DNA of 64,000 nt from an uncultured Planctomycetia bacterium (GTDB lineage Bacteria > Omnitrophota > Gorgyraeia > 2-02-FULL-51-18): assembly GCA_964628355.1 (NCBI GenBank), contig CAZVNB010000033.1:4965-68964 (forward strand), given 5' to 3'. Below the pieces are notes generated by a model that saw only the letters and a list, made by a program, of their open reading frames with translations, ran no database searches and was not told the DNA's origin. This document shows positions 39,834 through 50,836 of this stretch, one piece after another. Position 1 is the stretch's first letter. Every line of letters starts with the position of its first letter. A program made the position numbers and the translations under genes.

Positions 39834-40292
39834 TTAATTCCGCGCCGCAACCAGTGAAAAACTGGCCGTGAGCACCCGGCCAATGGGATTTCCACTATCG
39901 CCCATCAAATCCATGCGACCTTCCAAAAATGCCCGAGGTCCTTCTTTCTTCATCAATCGCGCGAAAATCCGCAACAAATTACCTGGTTTTACAAATTGAC
40001 CGAACTTTACCTCATGCACCTGTTCCAACCTCAGGAGCTGCGTGTCCGAGTTTTCCCAACCACCCAGAAGAAGCATGGCTGCTTGTTTGAGCGATTCCAA
40101 GAGTAAAACCCCTGGCATCACCGGAAAATTTTCGAAATGATCTTGCAGGAATTCTTCATTTCCTTTCAACGTGAAAAAAGCCGTAATACTCTGGTTCTTT
40201 TCTACTTCCGAAATTTTATCAATAAAAGAGAATGCACCCAAATGTTTTTTTATCCCTGAAAAAAGAGCAATTTTAACTCCGTAATATAGCAT
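39834..40292 (-). CDS. FabZ-like 3-hydroxyacyl-ACP dehydratase
   Basis: HFENFPVMPGVLLLESLKQ is the classic FabZ active-site motif. Confidence 0.75.
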   Translation of the reverse strand: MLYYGVKIALFSGIKKHLGAFSFIDKISEVEKNQSITAFFTLKGNEEFLQDHFENFPVMPGVLLLESLKQAAMLLLGGWENSDTQLLRLEQVHEVKFGQFVKPGNLLRIFARLMKKEGPRAFLEGRMDLMGDSGNPIGRVLTASFSLVAARN

Positions 40293-40328
40293 GAAAGTGG
40301 AGAAAATACCAAGCAGTTAGTCCGAAGG

Positions 40329-41619
40329 GGTGACGTCAATCAAATTGGGTAAATTGCTTTAAGGGTTTGTTCTTCCAGTTGTTGTTTAAGTGCGTAAAGA
40401 TGGCGTAAATGATGCGTTCACTTGAGGCGATATTCGAGAAGCAGGAGAACACTCTCGTTCTACGCCTAACCTCTCGGAAGGCCCGTTCAATGGCGTTGGT
40501 TGTCCGGATTTTGATCTGGTGCGACTTCGGACAGTCCAGGAAGGCGAGCATCTCTTCCAGGTCCTTTTCAAGACAATGAACCGCTTGGGGCGCCCTCTTC
40601 TGCCAGTCCCTCTTCCAGGCCTTGAACTCGGCGACGGCCTTGAGTCGGTTTGGTGCTTGGTAGATTCCTCGCGCCTGGTCAATCAACTCTTCTTCGTAGG
40701 CCTTCTTGCAGTAATTGGAGACATTCCTGAGCTTGTGAGCCCAACAGCGTTGGATCTTGGAGTGAGGATAGACGAGTTCAGCGGCTGTTTTTAAACCGGC
40801 TGATCCGTCCATGGCGATGAGTTTTAGGTTCTCCCCTTTAAGGCCTCTCCGATAAAGAGAATTCAAAAGAGACTCCCATGAAGCTTGGGACTCCCCCTTG
40901 GCGGTCATGAACCCGATGAGTTTCCTTTCTCCAAAGACTGTGATGCCGTAAGCTACAAGGATCTTTCGGTTGTGATACCTGCCGTTGTAGAGGGTTTTCA
41001 AGGTAATGCCGTCCAGGATGAGATATTGGTATTCATCAAGAATGGGCGCTCTGTGGAATTGTGCGACTTTTTTATCCAGTCTCTTTGTGATATTGGAGAC
41101 CGTGCCGTGGGAGACTTTTGTGTCTAGGAGCTTAGAGATGGCCTCTCCCACACGGCGGGTTGAGACTCCGGCGAGGAAGATGCCTTCTATCGGGTCTAGC
41201 ACCAGATCCTGATGGCGGTGGTATCTTTTAAAGACTCTTGTTTTAAATTCAGCTCCACGGGCTCTTGGGACCTGAATGTCTTCGACTAGACCAAACTGGG
41301 TCACAAGACCACGGGAGTAATAGCCATGCCGGTAGACGGAGGCCTTGCGGTCGTAAGGAGCGCGTTTTAGTTCCTGGGTCATCTCTTCGGCCATGGTTGA
41401 TTCCATCAGTTCCTTCAAGAGTGTTTTTACCTTTTCTTTGGCATTTTCCTGCCAGAAGTTTTCTTTGACCTCTACCCACCAATCTTTTAGAATCTGGGAT
41501 TGTGGGAGTGTTCTTCCGTGTGCTTCCATGGGCGTATTCCTCCTTTGTGTGATAACTAGAAGGATACGCCCTTTTCTTTTCCTACCTACTTGAATTTACC
41601 CAATTTATTTTACGCTACC
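40329..41619 (-). mobile_element. IS256-family (Mutator-type) insertion sequence, ~1291 bp
   Basis: A single transposase ORF flanked by imperfect ~27-bp terminal inverted repeats sharing the core AAATTGGGTAAATT (40342-40355 and 41594-41607 as the reverse complement). No clean target-site duplication detected. Confidence 0.8.
40336..41529 (-). CDS. IS256-family transposase (Transposase_mut)
   Basis: 397 aa; DDE region with conserved LILDGITLK ... MDGSAGL ... CWAHKLRN ... AIERAFREVRRR blocks. Confidence 0.9.
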   Translation of the reverse strand: MEAHGRTLPQSQILKDWWVEVKENFWQENAKEKVKTLLKELMESTMAEEMTQELKRAPYDRKASVYRHGYYSRGLVTQFGLVEDIQVPRARGAEFKTRVFKRYHRHQDLVLDPIEGIFLAGVSTRRVGEAISKLLDTKVSHGTVSNITKRLDKKVAQFHRAPILDEYQYLILDGITLKTLYNGRYHNRKILVAYGITVFGERKLIGFMTAKGESQASWESLLNSLYRRGLKGENLKLIAMDGSAGLKTAAELVYPHSKIQRCWAHKLRNVSNYCKKAYEEELIDQARGIYQAPNRLKAVAEFKAWKRDWQKRAPQAVHCLEKDLEEMLAFLDCPKSHQIKIRTTNAIERAFREVRRRTRVFSCFSNIASSERIIYAIFTHLNNNWKNKPLKQFTQFD

Positions 41620-42140
41620 TTTTCTGTAGAATTATCGAAGAACATCCAGCTGTCAACTTTATCTTTATAGATAAGTTGAAAATTATCGAGCGATCTTTGG
41701 AATCTCCTTCTCACGTCTTTTTCCGGAACGTTATGGCCTCCTTTTGAGACTCTCTGCTTTATTCGAGCCAGAGAAAGATGGGCATCAGGCACCCATAGAA
41801 AAAATAAAAAAATCTGATACCCCTCAGCCCTAAGCTGCGAAAATAATCGAGCGTTGGTTTTACCTGAAAGAGTGGTTTCAAACCCAAAATCCTTTAAGTG
41901 CGTAGCATATTCACGTATTCTCTTCAGAACTGTCCGACACGCCTGCATCGCTTCTCCTTCTGGGGAAAAGGGAGACAGCCCTTGGGCAACAAAATCTGCA
42001 TTAATAAAATTCGGGCAATGCACATAACTATGCAAAAACTCTTTAGCAAAAGTAGTTTTGCCCGAGCCGTTCGGGCCAGCGATGATGTAGAGGTTTTTAG
42101 GGTTCAAGTATTGCGTCCAACCTGTTCGATACTTTCCCAT
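41610..42140 (-). CDS. Zeta-toxin / COG4185-like P-loop kinase; the 3' end lies inside the IS terminal repeat
   Basis: Walker A IIAGPNGSGKTT with INADFVAQ downstream. The last codons (..VA-stop) are encoded by IS right-end sequence (41610-41619). Confidence 0.6.
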   Translation of the reverse strand: MGKYRTGWTQYLNPKNLYIIAGPNGSGKTTFAKEFLHSYVHCPNFINADFVAQGLSPFSPEGEAMQACRTVLKRIREYATHLKDFGFETTLSGKTNARLFSQLRAEGYQIFLFFLWVPDAHLSLARIKQRVSKGGHNVPEKDVRRRFQRSLDNFQLIYKDKVDSWMFFDNSTEKVA

Positions 42141-42500
42141 ACAATAGCGTAGGCCGCGTTCCATAATCGACTGAAATTATCATATTCATCCTTATTCGAA
42201 GGTAGCCCTATTTGTGTAAATGATGATTTGAGGATCTCTCCCTTGTAACTGACTTCTATCGATATCATGGACGCATCCAGGCCCACATAATCAAGTTTCC
42301 CCGTCTTTTGAAGCTCAGTCAGTTTTGCATAAACATCCGAGACAATTCTCTGGCCTTCACCAAACGGTTTTATTGACACTTCCGTAACTTTCCCTGTACG
42401 AATGCGGCCCGGATAATAACTTACTTTAACATAATCCTCACCAGCCCAGACTGACCTGCAAACTAATAAAAAAATGACGACTAAAAAACATTTCTTCATG
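42104..42500 (-). CDS. Secreted hypothetical protein
   Basis: Start ATG 42500 with GGAGA RBS. Signal peptide MKKCFLVVIFLLVCRSVWA. The listed 5' extension is leader sequence. Confidence 0.5.
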
Positions 42501-42514
42501 TTTTTCTCCTGGAA

Positions 42515-42710
42515 TTTAAAAAATAAACACCCCGCCTCCAAACTGGAAGCGAGGCGTCTTCTTTATTTTGTTACGCTTAACTACCCAGATTTGGGGTGCG
42601 AATGAGCGTCCAAATTGGCTCCCCGGCTTTGGACGCCATTCGAACCACAGAATCCCGCCAGGAAGTGGTGCTTTTGATCAAACTCTATAGGGTCCGTCGA
42701 AAGGGTCTTT
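42515..42710 (-). repeat. Repeat family A, copy 1 (full length): a structured ~190-bp element with a long hairpin and a terminator adjacent to the downstream gene's RBS
   Basis: Near-identical to 44786-44920 and to 46545-46636 (truncated). Hairpin 42599-42642: ~16-19 bp stem, 13-nt loop. Minus-strand terminator 42527-42557 (10-bp GC-rich stem) followed by UGUUUAUUUUUU. Confidence 0.8.
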
Positions 42711-42748
42711 TAGTATCTTTGGGGTGAAAATCCAATAAAAAGCGAGCT

Positions 42749-43189
42749 TTACCTTGCAACAGGAGGAGCTGACGAAGTCTCTTGCCTTTTTCCTAGTTCT
42801 TTTCTTTGAGTCTTAGTATTATTTACAGCCACCCACACAAGACCGCCCAAATCTAAAGCGGCGACAATTCCGGCAGTAGCGGGATTACCGTTAATTGCAA
42901 TTTCCTTGGCAACATACAAACCAAAAATCGCGATCGAAGTCCCTGCTATCATTCCCAAATAGGACTTCACAAGGTTTGAATTAACAACCTTGTTTTCTAG
43001 GCCCATTCTGTGATCGGATTGCTTCTCAGCCATGCGAATTATTCGTTCGGCCGAGCCGGGAACAATATTATTATACTGCTGTAGAATCTGTGGAGCCGGA
43101 ATGGGGCCGCTGATTTCCGTATAGGTTGCTACGCGTGCTGGCGGAGGATTGCTGGGATTATTTCGGGCAGGGGGATTATTATCTGGCAT
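42749..43189 (-). CDS. DUF2335-like membrane protein
   Basis: Pro-rich N-terminus, conserved PAPQILQQYNNIVPGSAERII.MAEKQ block, and two C-terminal TM segments. Confidence 0.45.
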   Translation of the reverse strand: MPDNNPPARNNPSNPPPARVATYTEISGPIPAPQILQQYNNIVPGSAERIIRMAEKQSDHRMGLENKVVNSNLVKSYLGMIAGTSIAIFGLYVAKEIAINGNPATAGIVAALDLGGLVWVAVNNTKTQRKELGKRQETSSAPPVAR

Positions 43190-43442
43190 CCGACGCTAAC
43201 TCTTGAGACGCCAAAATCAAATGATCGCCAACCGATGCCCAGTCGCTGTAAAGAGCTTGATTATCAGCTTCCTGCGGGGTCAAATTTTCATTATAAACAT
43301 CCTGGTTGCCGAGGATATCCAAAACCCTAGACATCCCTTCGGTCAGCGAAGGATTGGCAAACAAACGGCCCGATCTAAAAAACAGTGTGCTATTCATAGT
43401 TATATTATGCCATATGAAAACGAAGGCTGACTAATTAAAAGA

Positions 43443-43471
43443 TCCCGGCTCCACGGGAAGCCGGGGCCAGC
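43443..43471 (-). terminator. Intrinsic-terminator-like hairpin 3' of the 43608-44054 gene
   Basis: Minus strand CCCGGCU-UCCCGUGG-AGCCGGG followed by AUCUUUUAAUU. A related but degenerate sequence lies at 45670-45698. Confidence 0.45.
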
Positions 43472-43607
43472 AAAACACGAGGTCTTGCTGGGATGATGTT
43501 GCAAGCATACCATCCACAACAAAGCTTAGTCAAGAAATTGAGTTTCAAAAAACTGCCTGTGAAAATGAACAAATCGCGTAGGCTGAGAAATTCGTGCCGA
43601 TATCCGC

Positions 43608-44054
43608 TTATTGCTTAATCTCGCTCTTCATCTTTTGTGGGAACTCAGCGATAATCTCTGGTTTCTTAAATAATCTGTAAATATAAAAGAAAATTAGTCC
43701 CATAATGATAAACATTGCCAACATTCCTACCCAAACCACCAAAAGCTTCATATCCACCTCGTGACCAGATTGTTTATTCGTCACTGCAGGGACAACAGTA
43801 GCCAACAAAAACCCAAAGAAACCCAGAATTGCCATGCATATGCTCAAGAAAGATAAGTAGACGAGAGCTACACGCGCAATATTTTTTCGCAATAGAATTC
43901 CCACACCTAATGGCACAAGAATTAGAGGTAAATAAACCCCTCTCAACAACCCAAGTAATCCCCACAAAACGAGTACCCAGCTAATAATATTGATTTTAGT
44001 TTTTGATTTCATAGGGGATCTTTGATACAAGAGAACTTTTATATTTACGTACAA
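43608..44054 (-). CDS. Small integral membrane protein, hypothetical
   Basis: Four predicted TM helices; 148 aa. Confidence 0.4.
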   Translation of the reverse strand: MYVNIKVLLYQRSPMKSKTKINIISWVLVLWGLLGLLRGVYLPLILVPLGVGILLRKNIARVALVYLSFLSICMAILGFFGFLLATVVPAVTNKQSGHEVDMKLLVVWVGMLAMFIIMGLIFFYIYRLFKKPEIIAEFPQKMKSEIKQ

Positions 44055-44700
44055 ATTCCAGAGCTATATTCGCGACGGTTAAACCAATTTGAAATAGATA
44101 TTCATGCACTACCGGTACAATCAGCTTCTGATCTTTTAAAGAGTACTCCATTGTGAGGCTTTCCACCGGAGATCCAAAAACTCCGTGAGTTGAATCTGCA
44201 TGTGCCGCCTCTTGCCCAGCATATCTTTCGATAAGAAATCTCGGTGTGAAACTTCTCATCTTGGGAGTACGGCCTTCGTCAGGAACTTCCCAATCAAGTA
44301 AAAACCCGTTTTCCAGCCACTCACTTAAATCAATGGATGAATATAGTGATTGGCCGTCTTTTTCAGCAAACACAATTGGTAAACGACCTCCGGCTAATTG
44401 GGTAAATAATGCTCTTTTCTTAACTTGTTGGACAATCTTTCCGGTTGTAGAATCCATTTCTGTAATTTGTATAAAGCCGTTTTGATTAAGTTTCATCACA
44501 GAAAATATATCTTTGGTTTCTGCCGCTAATTCAGACATCAGTCCATCACCACTTTGTGATCCAACCAGAACTCTGAGTCTTATTCCGATGTTCTTTACTT
44601 CGTCAAAATTGTGATCGACAGCAAACCTATCGCAACTGTCCAACAATAATTGCGCATGGCTTCTGAGATCTTCTAATCTTTGTTGAAAATCCTTTTTCAT
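43996..44700 (-). CDS. Hypothetical protein
   Basis: ORF. The likely start is ATG 44700 (MKKDFQQRLEDL); the upstream part of the listed ORF overlaps repeat copy 2. Confidence 0.4.
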   Translation of the reverse strand: MKKDFQQRLEDLRSHAQLLLDSCDRFAVDHNFDEVKNIGIRLRVLVGSQSGDGLMSELAAETKDIFSVMKLNQNGFIQITEMDSTTGKIVQQVKKRALFTQLAGGRLPIVFAEKDGQSLYSSIDLSEWLENGFLLDWEVPDEGRTPKMRSFTPRFLIERYAGQEAAHADSTHGVFGSPVESLTMEYSLKDQKLIVPVVHEYLFQIGLTVANIALEFVRKYKSSLVSKIPYEIKN

Positions 44701-44785
44701 TTGATTCCATTTCCTAAGTAAGATACCCGCCCCTAACCGGGAGCGAGGTGTTAAGCATACAAACACAACGTTCAATACTCACTCG

Positions 44786-44920
44786 AACTGGGGTTCGAAT
44801 GAGCGTCCAAATTGGCTCCCCGGCTTGGACGCCATTCGAACCACAGAATCCAGCCAGGAAGTGCTACTTTTAGTCAAACTCTATAGGGTCCGGCGAAAGG
44901 GACTTTTGGTGTCTTTCGAG
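44786..44920 (-). repeat. Repeat family A, copy 2 (core conserved; gene-proximal terminator segment divergent)
   Basis: 44786-44920 aligns with 42592-42708 at >90% identity, including hairpin 44796-44838. Confidence 0.8.
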
Positions 44921-44947
44921 AAACCTTTCACCTAAAAAGAACAGAAA

Positions 44948-45268
44948 TCAAACGAATTGCAAAACCTGCTCGCTTCGCTTTCTATGCACCGCTTTGACTT
45001 TGAAGACAATGCCCAAGACGTTAAGAAACCGGATCAACGTTTCAAGCGTAATGTTTGATCCGTTTTCTATCCTGGCAACCACTTGCTGTTTGATTCCCAG
45101 TTTACCTGCAAGCTGTTTTTGGGTCAGGCCTTTTTTTTCTCTATATTCTACAAGATGTTCTAAAAGCTCAAGCTTTGAGGCTTCAAGCTCTATGCGGGCC
45201 TCTCTTTTCTTATCTTGGCCGATGAGCTTTTTTCTAACTTCTTCGTAACTTTCTCCGATATGTTTCAT
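44948..45268 (-). CDS. higA: HigA-like XRE-family antitoxin
   Basis: HTH_XRE: LTQKQLAGKLGIKQQVVARIENG. Sits immediately downstream of the toxin with a 4-nt overlap. Confidence 0.75.
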   Translation of the reverse strand: MKHIGESYEEVRKKLIGQDKKREARIELEASKLELLEHLVEYREKKGLTQKQLAGKLGIKQQVVARIENGSNITLETLIRFLNVLGIVFKVKAVHRKRSEQVLQFV

Positions 45269-45609
45269 GATAGCGCCTCTCTTTCCAAATAATCTGCTTT
45301 TCTTTTTAAAGCGATTTCAAGCTCTCTTTGCGGTATGTCACTCGTTCTTTTCAAAAAAGCGTGCAGCAATAGAACCTGTGTTCGCCTGTGAAAGCAACAT
45401 AAGATCCTGTTCCGATCAGGCCTAAGTTCATACAAGCCAAGCCCACCTCCAAGGCTATCCGTTATGGGTCTTCTAAGACCAAAACCAAACTGTGCCAACC
45501 TGTCCAAATAGGCGATCGCTTTATCTTGCTGCCTTTTTGGCGCTGAACTTAGATACTCGTGGACAGGAGAATTACCCTTTTCATCCTTGTAGAAGATTAT
45601 TTCAAACAC
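45265..45609 (-). CDS. higB: HigB-like (Gp49 / RelE-ParE superfamily) toxin
   Basis: Gp49-family pattern: FL..L....QAKI..L...G, then GLYELR, then LLHAF.K. Toxin-first gene order is typical of higBA. GTG start with GGAGA RBS. Confidence 0.7.
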   Translation of the reverse strand: MFEIIFYKDEKGNSPVHEYLSSAPKRQQDKAIAYLDRLAQFGFGLRRPITDSLGGGLGLYELRPDRNRILCCFHRRTQVLLLHAFLKRTSDIPQRELEIALKRKADYLEREALS

Positions 45610-45630
45610 TTGTTCTCCGGTCTTATCTCA

Positions 45631-45658
45631 AGTATACAGCATATAAGCTGTATGTCAA
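45631..45658 (-). promoter_or_regulatory. higBA promoter with palindromic operator
   Basis: Minus strand TTGACA, a 16-nt spacer, then TATACT. The spacer contains the perfect palindrome ACAGC-TTATAT-GCTGT, overlapping -10. Confidence 0.6.
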
Positions 45659-45708
45659 GTGGGTAAAAACCCGACTCCACAGGAAGCAGAGGCCAGCACT
45701 TACTTGGG

Positions 45709-46506
45709 CTATTTATTTTCAGGTTCTATCTTTGCCGGTTGAAATACGGTGCCAGGAACGTAGCGATAACCTTGTGGAATTGTCGGAAACTTTTGTTGAT
45801 TGAAAGCCTTAAGCTCTCCCTCGGTGATAACGTGCTTATCAATATCAGGAACGTTAACCTTATTGCTTTCGCGCCATTCCCATTTAAGTTGATTAATGGC
45901 AGTTTCGGCTGCATAGAGAGCGCCCATAAGTTCTTCTTGTTTTTTGGTAATAATCTCCCCGGTGTCGGTATCAAAGATTAGCGTACGATCATCGATCATC
46001 TGAGCCTCAAAGAGAAGCTTATTTCCATAGGACCGAGAAAAACCCAGTATATTTTTAATAACCGTATAATGGCTCTCGCTTGATGACACATTATTAGCAG
46101 ACCCAGCAGTATCCAACGTTGAGTAAGACTTCAGAAGTTTACCGGTTTTGTAGAAGGCTAGCGCGAGTTCTCCCGCTGAGGCTTCATGTCCTCTAGACCA
46201 CGCTCCGGTTTGAACCACACAAACTGTATCAGGACTCGCAGCAAAACCATCAAGAAAAATATTCGGTGAGTACCAATCATATTGGTGCACAAGGAGATCA
46301 TCTTTGTCTGTAACCTGATAAATTTTAGTTTTACCTTTCAAACCATAACTTTCGGCAGGGATTGATTTGGCGTAGAAACCGCCCCATTCGTTCGATTTGA
46401 CATATGGTCGATTACCCGCTTCATCATCAGCAAAAGAAAGCTGGGTTAAAGAAATAGATATTCCAAATACGAAAATAATTGCGAATAATTTTTTCATGTC
46501 AATCAT
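45709..46506 (-). CDS. Secreted hypothetical protein
   Basis: Signal peptide MKKLFAIIFVFGISISLTQLSFA; 265 aa. Confidence 0.45.
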   Translation of the reverse strand: MIDMKKLFAIIFVFGISISLTQLSFADDEAGNRPYVKSNEWGGFYAKSIPAESYGLKGKTKIYQVTDKDDLLVHQYDWYSPNIFLDGFAASPDTVCVVQTGAWSRGHEASAGELALAFYKTGKLLKSYSTLDTAGSANNVSSSESHYTVIKNILGFSRSYGNKLLFEAQMIDDRTLIFDTDTGEIITKKQEELMGALYAAETAINQLKWEWRESNKVNVPDIDKHVITEGELKAFNQQKFPTIPQGYRYVPGTVFQPAKIEPENK

Positions 46507-46544
46507 TAAAATCGATTCCTTAACATTAGACTCCGGAACAATAC

Positions 46545-46636
46545 GCCCCGCCTCTAAACTGGGAGCGAGGCGTCTTCTTTATTTTGTTACGCTTAACTAC
46601 CCCGACTTGGGATGCGAATGAGCGTCCAAATTGGTA
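46545..46636 (-). repeat. Repeat family A, copy 3 (truncated within the long hairpin at the GIY-YIG junction)
   Basis: 46545-46636 matches 42528-42617 (terminator segment plus the left half of the hairpin). Homology stops at ...CGTCCAAATTGG and is followed by the palindrome GATCAAT-CACGTG-ATCGAC. Confidence 0.75.
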
Positions 46637-46640
46637 TCGA

Positions 46641-46916
46641 TCAATCACGTGATCGACTTAAGCTTCTTAAAGAATAAAAATCACCATGAATCAGTGCCAA
46701 CTTCTTGGCGCGACTCCAGCACTTAATCTGTGCTTCACGCTTTTTAGCGTCTACTTTGGATCGATGTTCTTCTTGATAAACCAAGCGAGCGGGTGGATTG
46801 TAGCCGGTATAATGCGACGTGCCTTCTCGATGTTCCCTCAGCCGCCGATTAAGATCGTTCGTTACACCTGTATAAAATGATCCGTCTGCGCATTCTAAAA
46901 TATAAACCGTCCACAT
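46641..46916 (-). CDS. GIY-YIG nuclease-family protein
   Basis: VYILECADGSFYTGVTNDLNRRLREH is the GIY-(x10)-YIG motif; 91 aa. Confidence 0.75.
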   Translation of the reverse strand: MWTVYILECADGSFYTGVTNDLNRRLREHREGTSHYTGYNPPARLVYQEEHRSKVDAKKREAQIKCWSRAKKLALIHGDFYSLRSLSRSRD

Positions 46917-47190
46917 TGATATTGTCCTTCGACGCGTTCGCTTCGCTCACTTGCTCAGGATGGATTCGGTGGTGAGCAAGGCGGATGGCCAAAAGGCCAT
47001 CCGCCGCGTCGAATCCACTCCACGAGCAGATATCCCAGGGAACCTTAATCTGCTCAAAAAGCACTGTTAAATTTCAAAAAGCACTCAAAAACACCACCCG
47101 ACTTACCCGGGCCAGTCAATTCTCCCACGCCGAAGAGATGGCCGCGCTTTGGAGCGATTCTCCAGAGTTGTTGCGGTGGGTGAAGGTGTC

Positions 47191-47709
47191 TTAAAAAACA
47201 CTATTATAAGGCAACACAAAGTGAGGTTCTTTAGCTTGCCTCCATAAAACCTCGACTGCCTGATTTAACACATTGCTCCAAAAAGTCATTTGACCACTGA
47301 TGTCTTCAATTTGACCGCTTTCGGACATTTTTATCCATACATTGATATTCCTGGTGGATTTAGGATCCAAGATGTAAGGGGCCGGTACAATGGTGAAGGT
47401 GCAAGTATTATCGTTGTTCATGACAAAGTTTTGTATCGTGTTATCCGTCGTTGAAAAAGTTTCGATTTTTAAAGCAACATCCTTCTGTTGGGGAAATGGA
47501 GTCATATAAATATGCTTCCATGCAATCTCGGACTTTCCATCAACATTTCTAATAAAAATATTTGCTATAATCTTAGTCCCTGGCATCTTCCCATTTTCGT
47601 ATACATCTAAATATTCCGTACCACCAACTCCTAAATCATCATGTAAGCCGGCATAAGCACAAGCTGTAAGAGTTAAAAATAATAAAACTACTAACACAAC
47701 GCGCTTCAT
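47191..47709 (-). CDS. Secreted hypothetical protein
   Basis: Signal peptide MKRVVLVVLLFLTLTACAYA; 172 aa. Confidence 0.45.
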   Translation of the reverse strand: MKRVVLVVLLFLTLTACAYAGLHDDLGVGGTEYLDVYENGKMPGTKIIANIFIRNVDGKSEIAWKHIYMTPFPQQKDVALKIETFSTTDNTIQNFVMNNDNTCTFTIVPAPYILDPKSTRNINVWIKMSESGQIEDISGQMTFWSNVLNQAVEVLWRQAKEPHFVLPYNSVF

Positions 47710-47735
47710 GAATAATCCTTTAATTTAATCTCGCT

Positions 47736-48524
47736 TTACTCAAAAGTAAAAGTACCGTCCGAAGTGATTCCCAATCGGTCTCGTCGTTCGGCGCGCAAGT
47801 CACGTACCGGATTGCCCCCCCAAGCCCCCTTGGCAGGAATTTTAGTGCCCTTAGGTAGATAGCTGCAAGGAGCAATGGAGGCCCCGTCTCCGATTTCGCA
47901 GTCGGGCATGATCACCGAGCCAAGACCAACTGAGGCGTTATTGCCTATTTTGGTGGGTGCCAAGCGCAAAAAACCACGTTCCGAGGCATGACAAATTAGC
48001 GCTACACCTCCACCGATCAGCACATTGTTGCCTATTTCAAGCATCGATAGATCCGCAAGACCAGCTGTATTTATATTCACTCCTTCCCCTACCTTGGCTC
48101 CCATGAGACGATAAAACAACGTTTGAAACGGCGAAAGACGTAAAACATCCAAAAAGGCGCTATTGGCGATTAAAATCATAGAGTTGTATCCCATCCACCG
48201 AAGGGCTTCTGGGGAATGAATGGCGTAAAGACCCGATGCAATCTTAAATCTGAAAATATTCTTTGTGAGAACGCAAAGAAAAATCAGTGTTGTGCCAAAA
48301 ATAAAATAACCCAATGAAATTGAAAAAGAAAATGCCAGCACTCTGAGCCAAAGTGCGTATGCCACTGTCAATTTCCACGTGCCGATAAGAAAAAAGACCA
48401 TGGGAAAAAGAGAAAAACCTAGCACAAAAATAGCTATAAAATGCAGAAAAATAATCCAAAGCTCAAAACGCGTGGCTTCCCACTTGGCTTTTTTACTTTT
48501 ATCATTCGGACTAGCTTCAGTCAT
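47736..48524 (-). CDS. Membrane-anchored hexapeptide-repeat (left-handed beta-helix) acyl/acetyltransferase
   Basis: N-terminal ~4 TM helices. C-terminal hexapeptide repeats (GAKVGEGVNINTAGLADLSMLEIGNNVLIGGGV...IGNNASVGLGSVI...IGDGASIA). Confidence 0.6.
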   Translation of the reverse strand: MTEASPNDKSKKAKWEATRFELWIIFLHFIAIFVLGFSLFPMVFFLIGTWKLTVAYALWLRVLAFSFSISLGYFIFGTTLIFLCVLTKNIFRFKIASGLYAIHSPEALRWMGYNSMILIANSAFLDVLRLSPFQTLFYRLMGAKVGEGVNINTAGLADLSMLEIGNNVLIGGGVALICHASERGFLRLAPTKIGNNASVGLGSVIMPDCEIGDGASIAPCSYLPKGTKIPAKGAWGGNPVRDLRAERRDRLGITSDGTFTFE

Positions 48525-48927: not shown

Positions 48928-49677
48928 ATGAGTCAAACACAAAAGTTTATTTTGGTAACTGGAGGCACCCGGGGAATCGGAAAAGCGATCACCCTGTCGC
49001 AGGTAAAAAAGACTTGTACGATTTTTTTAAATTACCTACGTGACGATGCTTCCGCGATGAAGGTGAAAAAAACCGCCGAAAAAAAAGGTTCCCGTGTCGT
49101 TCTTCTGCCAGGCAATGTCGGTGATGCGGAAACGGTATCCTGCCTATTTCAGTCAATTCAAAAAGAAACAAACCGCCTAGATGCCCTGATTCACAGCGCG
49201 GCACTCGGGGTTTTTAAACCCGTCCATCAATTGCGCGTGAAAGATTGGGATATTTCACTCGACGTGAATGCGAAGGCATTTTTGCTCCTCACGCAGGCAA
49301 CGTTGCCATTGATGAAAAAATACGGTGGTAAAATCCTTGCAATCTCAAGCCTCGGATCACGGCGTTTCACACCCAATTACGGAGCCATCGGCATTTCGAA
49401 AGCAGCGCTAGAAAACCTGGTGCGTTATCTTGCTGTTGAACTGGCACCGCATAAAATTCATGTAAATGCGGTGTCAGGGGGACTGGTCGAGACCGATTCT
49501 CTCAAGATGTTCCCCAATTTTGAGTCAATGAAGAAAGCTTACCTTTCTCGAACGCCGGGAGCTCGTCTGGGAAAACCACAAGATATTGCGGATATCGTTT
49601 CCTTTCTTTTAAGTCCTCAGGCTAACTGGATTTACGGTCAGACGATTATCGCGGATGGCGGCTATTCTCTCTTTTAA
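48928..49677 (+). CDS. SDR-family oxidoreductase (FabG-like)
   Basis: TGGTRGIGKAI Rossmann motif, NAA and S...Y..K catalytic elements. Confidence 0.8.
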   Translation: MSQTQKFILVTGGTRGIGKAITLSQVKKTCTIFLNYLRDDASAMKVKKTAEKKGSRVVLLPGNVGDAETVSCLFQSIQKETNRLDALIHSAALGVFKPVHQLRVKDWDISLDVNAKAFLLLTQATLPLMKKYGGKILAISSLGSRRFTPNYGAIGISKAALENLVRYLAVELAPHKIHVNAVSGGLVETDSLKMFPNFESMKKAYLSRTPGARLGKPQDIADIVSFLLSPQANWIYGQTIIADGGYSLF

Positions 49678-50836
49678 TTCTCTGGCTTTTTTCTATTCAT
49701 TCCTGGTCATCGCGGTTTGGACACGACGTGTTTTTTGGATGTCAAAGTTCCGAAAAACCAACCCACCTCTCAAACCCATCGAGCAGTCCAATATCCGGGT
49801 GAACGAGAAAATTTCCGTTATTGTTCCTGCGCGCAATGAGGAAAAAAATATTGCACGTTGTCTTTTTCATCTTTTAAGGCAAAATTATAAGAATTTTGAA
49901 ATTATTGTGGTGGATGACCGTTCCGATGACCGCACGGGACACCTTTTACAAAACTTCAAAGGGCTGTCCGAACTACCGTTTAAAATAATCCGTATCGAAA
50001 AACTCCCTTCAGGCTGGACAGGGAAAAACCATGCCATGTTCGTGGGATCAAAAGCGGCAACAGGATCCTGGCTCCTTTTCACGGACGCGGACACAACGCA
50101 CCAACCGGCATCACTTGGCACAGCCATTAGTTGTGCGGTTGAAAATAAAATCGATTTCCTAACACTTGCACCGGAAACTGAATGTCGTACGTTTTGGGAA
50201 AAAACGGTGCAACCTCTCGCCGTTTCGAGCCTCGCGCTGTGGTTTAACACAGTAGAAGTGAACAATCCACTTTCAAAAATTGTGCTTGCCAATGGTCAGT
50301 ATATTTTGATCCGGAAAAATATCTATGAAGCGGTGGGAGGAAATGAGTCCGTAAAATCAGAAGTGGTGGAAGATGTGGAACTGGCCAAAAAAGTAAAAGC
50401 CGCGGGTTACGCGATTCGCTTTCTTAACGGCACCGAGCTTTATTCGACACGCATGTACAGCTCGCTAAAAGAAATTAAGACCGGCTGGACGCGTATCTAC
50501 ACTTATCTATTCAATAAAAAAGTTCCGCTGATCCTGCATAAAATATTTCTATTTTTATTTTTTTCTATCCTCCCTTTCATTGTTTTAGGTCTTGAAAAAT
50601 TCTGGTTTTTTTCCGGGTCGGCGCTTTATAATCCGACGGTTTGCGTAATATCTCTTTTTGCCTGCACATGGATAATTCTTATTCGTTTTTTTGGAAACAA
50701 GCTTCTAAAATGCAATCCTTGGTACGCCCTGCTTCACCCCGTCGGGTCGCTGGTGATGTTGTGGGTTCTTGCCTCTTGCCTGGGAAGAATAATTTTCAAC
50801 CAACCGTCGGTGTGGCGCGGGGATTCTTACCGTTAA
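49655..50836 (+). CDS. Family 2 glycosyltransferase with C-terminal TM region
   Basis: VIVPARNEE, IIVVDDRSDD and LFTDADT (DXD) motifs. An alternative start at ATG 49739 is possible. Confidence 0.7.
   Translation: MAAILSFNSLAFFYSFLVIAVWTRRVFWMSKFRKTNPPLKPIEQSNIRVNEKISVIVPARNEEKNIARCLFHLLRQNYKNFEIIVVDDRSDDRTGHLLQNFKGLSELPFKIIRIEKLPSGWTGKNHAMFVGSKAATGSWLLFTDADTTHQPASLGTAISCAVENKIDFLTLAPETECRTFWEKTVQPLAVSSLALWFNTVEVNNPLSKIVLANGQYILIRKNIYEAVGGNESVKSEVVEDVELAKKVKAAGYAIRFLNGTELYSTRMYSSLKEIKTGWTRIYTYLFNKKVPLILHKIFLFLFFSILPFIVLGLEKFWFFSGSALYNPTVCVISLFACTWIILIRFFGNKLLKCNPWYALLHPVGSLVMLWVLASCLGRIIFNQPSVWRGDSYR

Follow-up and report, generated by a model that had tools for sequence, protein, structure and literature searches.

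How did an insertion sequence (IS) come to lie against the front of a lipid operon in an uncultured Planctomycetia bacterium, and has it cost that operon its promoter? The question arises in a 64,000-nucleotide stretch of contig CAZVNB010000033.1 (assembly GCA_964628355.1; hereafter the window, numbered from its first base), where an intact IS of the IS256 family (40329-41619, minus strand) ends shortly before the operon and, at its other end, runs into a zeta-toxin-like gene. A first-pass annotation of this DNA had placed the IS upstream of the lipid cluster and supposed that it had displaced the native promoter. We found instead that the IS forms one end of a 7428-bp block (40329-47756, minus strand), made up of the IS and 6.1 kb of accessory genes, which is absent from IS-free relatives, and that this block lies inside the cluster, between a transferase gene and the dehydratase-ACP-PPTase-dehydratase-KS-KS operon, which it splits from one another instead of preceding them both. 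The best explanation, and in our judgment the probable one, is that the IS arrived as the operon-proximal end of this unit by a two-step history.

The evidence for an insertion comes from loci that do not carry the IS. A metagenome scan with the first protein of the operon recovered four of them, L014 and L015 (78-79% identical to the window's protein) and L016 and L017 (56-60% identical). In L014, L016, and L017, a homologue of a hexapeptide-repeat transferase (70-86% amino acid identity) stands immediately upstream of the dehydratase gene, whereas the window's own transferase gene (47736-48524, minus strand), the native upstream neighbor of the operon, lies 7.4 kb off; synteny with the same three loci continues further upstream through SDR and GT2 genes (window 48928-50836), and none of the three holds a counterpart of any content of 40329-47756. 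When 40329-47756 is removed together with one copy of an 8-bp direct repeat that borders it, the joined sequence (...CGATTGGGAATCACTTCGGACTAACTGCTTGG) aligns gap-free, base for base, with L014 (...CGACTGGCGGCTAACCAAGACTAACTGCTTGG), and this reconstructed empty site restores a transferase that ends ...ITSD-TAA at the protein length seen in L014. In its present state the window transferase reads into the island, taking its last six codons and stop from 47736-47756 (...ITSD GTFTFE* versus ...ITSD*). Insertion took place just after the final sense codon of the transferase gene and ahead of its stop, at a point 7 nt upstream of the -35 hexamer of the operon; the far junction is 100% identical in an independent assembly, L019 (window 48653-47135). 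These comparisons demonstrate an insertion relative to the IS-free relatives.

The two copies of the repeat, CTTCGGAC, sit at the outer borders of the whole block. A single base, G40328, separates the right copy (40320-40327, minus strand) from the IS tip, the left copy (47757-47764, minus strand) coincides with the final 8 bases of the native transferase coding sequence, and on the plus strand the same 8-mer, GTCCGAAG, occurs in the window at these two positions only. No duplication was found directly around the 1291-bp IS, as had been noted before; that observation is correct for the IS alone and had missed the repeat that flanks the IS plus 6.1 kb. We read the repeat as the target-site duplication (TSD) of the entire 40329-47756 unit, and against a range of 8-9 bp for the family, a TSD of 8 bp has been reported for two IS256-family elements, ISCth4 (PMC7780238) and ISPaes3 (PMC3281130). 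At the fourth IS-free locus, L015, the gene upstream of the operon (1310-2872) is of the ThyX type (Thy1) and not a hexapeptide transferase, while the promoter block nonetheless begins at the same place; this boundary appears to be a recurrent rearrangement point.

The element itself is an IS256-family IS with one DDE/Mutator-type transposase. Its sole long minus-strand open reading frame (ORF), at 40336-41529, encodes a 397-amino acid transposase that is intact, full length in comparison with its homologues, and read toward the lipid operon. The protein matched Pfam Transposase_mut (PF00872; E=4.6e-82, profile positions 18-378 of 379) and NCBIfam transpos_IS256 (NF033543; 303.8 bits against a curated cut-off of 150), and phmmer related it over residues 30-386 to the IS256-family ISCth4 transposase in PDB entry 6xg8 (E=1.9e-41), a distant match. 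The nearest public transposases are 92% and 85% identical, with homologues of 397 amino acids reaching up to 92%; the closest relatives of this IS are uncharacterized metagenomic copies (at most 92%), one of them in a Planctomycetia metagenome-assembled genome (MAG); no record of the exact protein was found, including in the assemblies of the two Logan runs discussed below, and scans of viral contigs gave no match to the transposase or to the terminal inverted repeats (TIRs). The right TIR, 3' of the transposase gene, occupies 40329-40355 (plus strand, GGTGACGTCAATCAAATTGGGTAAATT) and the left TIR 41593-41619 (minus strand, the reverse complement of GGTAGCGTAAAATAAATTGGGTAAATT); they are 27 bp long and imperfect, with 22 of 27 positions identical. 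The length of 1291 bp and these TIRs agree with the family norm (about 1.2-1.5 kb, with imperfect TIRs of about 20-40 bp), bearing out the earlier description of a roughly 1291-bp IS256-family element with imperfect TIRs of about 27 bp, and a degenerate TIR pattern matched twice in the window and in none of 100 shuffles. IS256-family elements transpose by a copy-out/paste-in route.

We then set the ends of the IS against other copies, and independent copies break at the same ends. Two contigs from different projects, carrying the 92% and 85% relatives, are themselves exactly 1291 bp long with the gene at 91-1284, the same geometry as in the window, and four unlike flanks of related copies (two per end) diverge precisely at GGTAACG... 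and ...GACGTGACC. Two Logan contigs assembled from separate sequencing runs match the window at 100% identity, L012 over 2645 bp and L013 over 1291 bp, and each starts at 40358, exactly 30 nt within the IS. With the k of 31 used by Logan, a repeat overlap of 30 nt (k-1) is expected at a de Bruijn repeat boundary; the two starts therefore place a repeat boundary at 40329. This shows that the junction between IS and operon is present in independent reads and that those samples contain the IS in more than one setting. A repeat finder reported a 32-nt inverted repeat at 40324-41624, which we rejected as a chance over-extension, as the independent copies end at GG...CC. These data demonstrate the identity and the ends of the IS.

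Compared with IS256 and ISCth4, the window element likewise has a single Mutator-type DDE transposase of about 400 amino acids, a length of about 1.3 kb, and imperfect TIRs of about 27 bp, and it has in common with them a subterminal core containing GTAAA; both window TIRs contain GGTAAA, which is five-sixths of the family motif TGTAAA. An outward -35-like TTGACG occupies bp 6-11 of the window's right TIR (40334-40339, minus strand), and bp 8-13 of the left TIR (41607-41612) read TAAAAT, which would serve as the -10 half of a promoter formed where the two ends meet in a circle. ISCth4 has its -35 and -10 in the same places (right TIR bp 6-11 and left TIR bp 8-13), and joining of its two TIRs in a circle creates a promoter (PMC7780238). 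The window element differs in that its 8-bp duplication flanks the IS plus 6.1 kb and not the IS alone.

The transposase leader can fold into a stem-loop (41530-41571, minus strand) in which the ribosome-binding site GGAGG is paired with an upstream arm. This was seen in all four copies compared, with a consensus fold of about -19 kcal/mol and 16 pairs; the arms are nearly invariant among the four, leaving minimal covariation. Leader stem-loops that sequester the Shine-Dalgarno sequence are the usual device by which such elements block translation of read-in transcripts. A scan of genome contigs returned a single close copy of the IS, L001 (CAYZGM010000001.1, a Planctomycetia MAG; 2709-2943), with a transposase 90% identical to the window's and a left tip 100% identical over 30 nt. 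In that copy, about 205 bp of unrelated, strongly palindromic DNA (GATTTTTGAATTTGATGGGT...ACCCATCAAATTCAAAAATC) follow before the IS homology resumes, and the insert looks like a small hairpin or an element resembling a miniature inverted-repeat transposable element, nested within the IS leader. The contig end cuts the L001 copy, so that its TSD is unreadable.

The IS-free loci also bear on the operon's promoter, and here they spoke against the claim that it had been displaced. Between the IS tip and the first gene lies a block, ACTAACTGCTTGGTATTTTC...TTTCATGCTATATTG..TTAAAATT, that is kept in L014-L017. Within it, a promoter-like element (40283-40312, minus strand; TTGGTA, an 18-nt spacer, and TGcTATATT) has its -35 at 40312-40307 and an extended -10 at 40291-40283, and the IS tip is 16 bp upstream of this intact -35. 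The window and the four relatives share a noncoding TTGGTA (or TTGGCA, TTGTTA, or TTGGTG), an 18-nt spacer, ATG(C/T)TATATTG, and then TTAAAATT, with the hexamers conserved and the middle of the spacer variable; a promoter scan called TTGGTA-18-TATATT with an upstream TG both in the window and at the homologous site of L014. The native element, sigma-70-like in its consensus, appears to have been kept and not displaced by the IS, and its conservation across the five loci suggests that the block is the operon's active promoter.

The same comparison moves the start of the operon. The first-pass annotation had started the first gene at an ATG at 40292 and put the IS 37 bp before it; the distance is 36 bp, close to what was stated, but this ATG is probably no start. 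It is the TG-containing part of the extended -10 element TGcTATATT, and its frame is not open in L014 and L015. Most dehydratase homologues are 135 amino acids long, including a 99%-identical NCBI protein (P0241), which points to TTG 40241. The first operon gene, encoding a FabZ/ApeI-like dehydratase, is likely to occupy 39834-40241 (minus strand; 135 amino acids), and a 152-amino acid reading from ATG 40292 is unlikely; the conservation of MLYY.VKIA in a few gene calls of 152 amino acids reflects conserved promoter DNA. The 5' leaders of L014 (1140-1160) and L015 (2975-2995) contain a short, G/C-clamped hairpin (CCCCTTTTTTGGGG) between the promoter and the TTG start, and the counterpart of this hairpin in the window (about 40245-40270) is degenerate. 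L016 and L017 are without that segment of about 30 nt, and with a start codon about 17-24 nt past the -10 they have a very short leader.

That the operon is nevertheless expressed mainly from an outward or hybrid promoter of the IS, or has been silenced by removal of its own, is unlikely. Such expression would fit the outward TTGACG in the right TIR, which lies where ISCth4 and IS256 carry -35 boxes that form hybrid promoters, and also the shared orientation of transposase and operon. A hybrid promoter of the kind that had been suggested was rejected all the same, for although TTGACG is present, no -10-like hexamer was found in the flank 16-18 nt past it; the native site, with its -35 and -10 intact and conserved, is the only promoter-like match found on the minus strand. 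There remains transcription from further upstream. No terminator-like site was found between the transposase stop (40336) and the operon promoter, and the transposase gene and all island genes point toward the operon; read-through into the operon is therefore possible, and the operon may receive transcripts from the transposase and the island genes. Of the routes by which the IS could drive expression, only this one stays plausible.

At its other end, the IS meets a truncated gene of the zeta-toxin family (41610-42107, minus strand). The open frame reaches an ATG at 42164, and the alignment indicates TTG 42107 as the likely start, which overlaps the stop of an upstream 145-amino acid partner ORF (TTGA). 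The 41610-42164 ORF matched Pfam Zeta_toxin (PF06414) at 40.4 bits against a cut-off of 22.3, and its Walker A motif, GPNGSGKT, is invariant in the alignment. Homologues number in the thousands, nearly all of 186-197 amino acids and typically about 191. The window protein tracks its five closest homologues (82-91% identical) as far as ...WMFFDNSTEK and then reads VA-stop, while the homologues run 28 residues further (PHLIASSADGKL...). The window copy consists of 163 native residues followed by an IS-encoded VA*, with 28 of 191 C-terminal residues lost; the first 10 bases of the left end of the IS supply the third base of the Lys codon (G), codons for Val and Ala, and the stop (TAA), and nucleotide similarity to the 88%-identical copies L008-L011 stops at 41619. 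The claim that this gene is C-terminally truncated, with its last codons and stop provided by the IS, was upheld by this alignment. These data demonstrate the truncation. No part of the 64-kb window, the 36 bp beyond the IS included, encodes the 28 missing residues; a simple insertion of the IS into a zeta gene at this site is therefore excluded.

The gene belongs with the Zeta/PezT toxins (PF06414), in the short subgroup of about 191 amino acids labeled 'predicted ABC-type ATPase', with which it has in common the Walker A motif GPNGSGKT, the Pfam match, and a small overlapping upstream partner. It differs from that family in that the last 28 residues are absent and that the upstream partner is without a recognizable antitoxin family; by its sequence it is a putative toxin. 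Genes of this subgroup occur in many unrelated contexts. In L008-L011, from a groundwater metagenome, the full-length zeta-like gene (91% identical) is followed by a 53-amino acid ORF and a DnaJ-like gene, and the similarity to the window begins and ends at the borders of the zeta gene. These loci were rejected as a guide to the native downstream neighbor, there being no synteny outside the zeta gene, and the zeta-like gene itself appears to move between contexts.

A history in two steps would bring these results together. First, the IS would have landed in the zeta-like gene at some other, donor site, with the last 28 codons falling outside the later unit. The transposase would then have acted on the right end of the IS and on a poor surrogate end at 47756, moving the IS along with the 6.1 kb that adjoins its left end, and the 3' end of the zeta gene would have been left behind at the donor site. 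Integration at the end of the transferase gene, just ahead of its stop, duplicated the 8 bp CTTCGGAC; because the duplication abuts the right end of the IS, that end took part in it. We infer the movement of the 7.4-kb unit in one step by this transposase, and likewise the order of events.

In the more specific form that an IS256-family element mobilized the 6.1 kb beside its left end as a single-IS module, joining its right TIR to a barely TIR-like end (GGTAC...TTGAGTAAA) and producing the 8-bp duplication, the proposal is a tentative one, possible though short of probable. Mobilization of adjacent DNA by a single IS, in what are called transposable modules (TMos), is established in the IS1380 family, and the ends of a TMo can be defined only when the unit has landed in a conserved context (PMC3281130). 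The window unit has the makeup of a TMo, with one IS at its end, a passenger, a TSD of the length typical of the family, and both ends set by synteny; TMos and ISEcp1-type units also have one IS at one end, a passenger of several kb, a surrogate end of poor match, and a TSD of the family's usual length that encloses the entire unit. The known TMo examples (IS1380; ISEcp1, ISPme1) bypass the right end, 3' of the transposase, whereas the passenger in the window lies beyond the left end, 5' of the transposase, and transposition of the window unit is inferred from one insertion. Composite transposons of the Tn4001 type likewise have a multi-kb segment moved by an IS256-family transposase and an 8-bp TSD at the outer ends. 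In contrast to these, the window has a single IS copy, with neither a second copy nor a transposase remnant anywhere in its 64 kb (blastn and tblastn), and its far end is without a significant TIR.

This far end (47734-47756, minus strand; GGTACTTTTACTTTTGAGTAAAG) has a GGTA tip and matches the TIR core TTGGGTAAA at 8 of 9 positions, set 3 bp nearer the tip. Among the 128,000 positions scanned in the window, only four have a GGTA tip followed, at an offset of 10-23, by a match to the TIR core of 8/9 or better; one of them is the left end of the IS itself and another exactly the far junction, in the right orientation. The 12-nt TIR core also recurs exactly, as a third copy, at 44396 (AATTGGGTAAAT; GGTA tip at 44378). 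This copy was considered as a relic TIR of a composite element and rejected, being in frame with a conserved gene (43996-44775), the homologues of which (32-77% identity) span the 44396 core stretch; it is best read as a chance match. A TIR-like site at 42201, inside the 145-amino acid partner ORF, was unsupported and was likewise set aside.

Several observations weigh against the history that we favor and against its parts. Local alignment of the far end with both TIRs was no better than with shuffles (p about 0.27), for which reason we reject it as a true TIR, and the tip-plus-core criterion was devised after the site had been seen and is suggestive only. To our knowledge, there is no example in the IS256 family of a single IS mobilizing flanking DNA. 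The extra base G40328 stands between the IS tip and the perfect 8-mer, and counted as a 9-bp TSD the repeat has one mismatch; no clean TSD was recovered in related copies, with L003 showing none, though on a short metagenomic contig. No independent assembly of the zeta-IS junction was recovered, and the source community evidently carries the IS in repeated or polymorphic form, which makes the interior of the assembly across it less certain than the outer junctions. The activity of the promoter, finally, was judged from consensus and conservation only.

An alternative, close to the first-pass reading, would keep the island and dispense with its joint arrival with the IS. An island with a complete zeta gene would already have stood here, the IS would have hit zeta, and an adjacent deletion from the right end of the IS to the operon promoter would have taken the zeta 3' end. 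This agrees with a zeta gene that ends exactly at the IS tip, with the absence of its 3' end from the window, and with the lack of a TSD around the IS itself, but the deletion would have had to stop no more than 1 bp from the other copy of the 8-bp repeat, at the boundary of island and target, and still to give an empty site in perfect colinearity with L014; among the possible end points, that is a chance of roughly 1 in thousands. We regard it as quite unlikely.

A second alternative, that the contig is an artefact in which the zeta flank of one copy of a multi-copy IS has been joined to the operon flank of another, is very unlikely. It draws on the de Bruijn contigs of two runs, which break exactly at the IS boundary, on the failure to find the exact transposase protein on record in those assemblies, and on the zeta-IS junction, which did not turn up in other assemblies. 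A chimera would, however, have to recreate the observed geometry by accident: the genes on both sides of the 7.4-kb block keep the order and orientation that they have in single IS-free loci, the 8-bp repeat ties the far island junction to the IS-operon junction, and both outer junctions are 100% identical in other assemblies. The opposite polarity, in which the block is ancestral and was lost from the relatives by slippage or recombination between the 8-bp repeats, is extremely improbable and unparsimonious, for although short direct repeats can mediate precise deletions and the island's GC content (38-47%) is not clearly unlike that of its surroundings, L014, L016, and L017 (56-79% dehydratase identity) are all compact with the transferase stop beside the promoter, the block is composed of an IS, genes of toxin-antitoxin type, and a GIY-YIG gene, all of them without relation to the cluster, and the zeta gene inside it is itself broken by the IS.

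By Pfam-based gene calls, the arriving unit of our preferred history carries, besides the IS, the truncated zeta-like gene and its 145-amino acid partner ORF, a DUF2335 gene, a 148-amino acid membrane-like ORF, a 259-amino acid gene of a rare family, an HTH_3/Gp49 toxin-antitoxin-like pair, a 265-amino acid secreted-looking ORF, a GIY-YIG gene, and a 172-amino acid lipoprotein-like ORF. The 259-amino acid ORF (43996-44775, minus strand) has no Pfam or NCBIfam match and a conserved GFLLDWEVP motif; eight cluster representatives among 1.84 billion matched it (the best 77% identical, the others 32-46%), and it is a rare but real gene family. At 44948-45609 (minus strand), a Gp49 gene (HigB/RelE-like) and an HTH_3 gene (antitoxin-like) have overlapping stop and start codons, and the GIY-YIG gene (46641-46916, minus strand) encodes a stand-alone nuclease domain of 91 amino acids. 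Exact-protein look-ups for further junctions or long contigs (P0241, zeta, DUF2335, the HTH gene, and P0019) returned no records, and a look-up of the ACP protein returned only the two contigs already found.

For the annotation of this locus, the lipid cluster is neither promoterless nor necessarily IS-driven, and beyond the insertion it takes in the hexapeptide transferase as well as the divergent SDR and GT2 genes. The zeta-like gene, truncated as it is, counts as a passenger and not as a neighbor of the cluster. The consequences of the event are a C-terminally truncated zeta-like kinase, a transferase with six additional foreign residues, and the separation of that transferase from the operon by 7.4 kb. 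The IS is a new member of a well-known family in its ordinary role, and its arrival is a routine mobile-element insertion unless single-IS mobilization is confirmed. The conserved context allows both ends of an IS-associated passenger unit to be defined, making this locus a clean natural example; if the single-IS reading is true, the widespread IS256 family would gain a route for moving passenger genes without a second IS copy.

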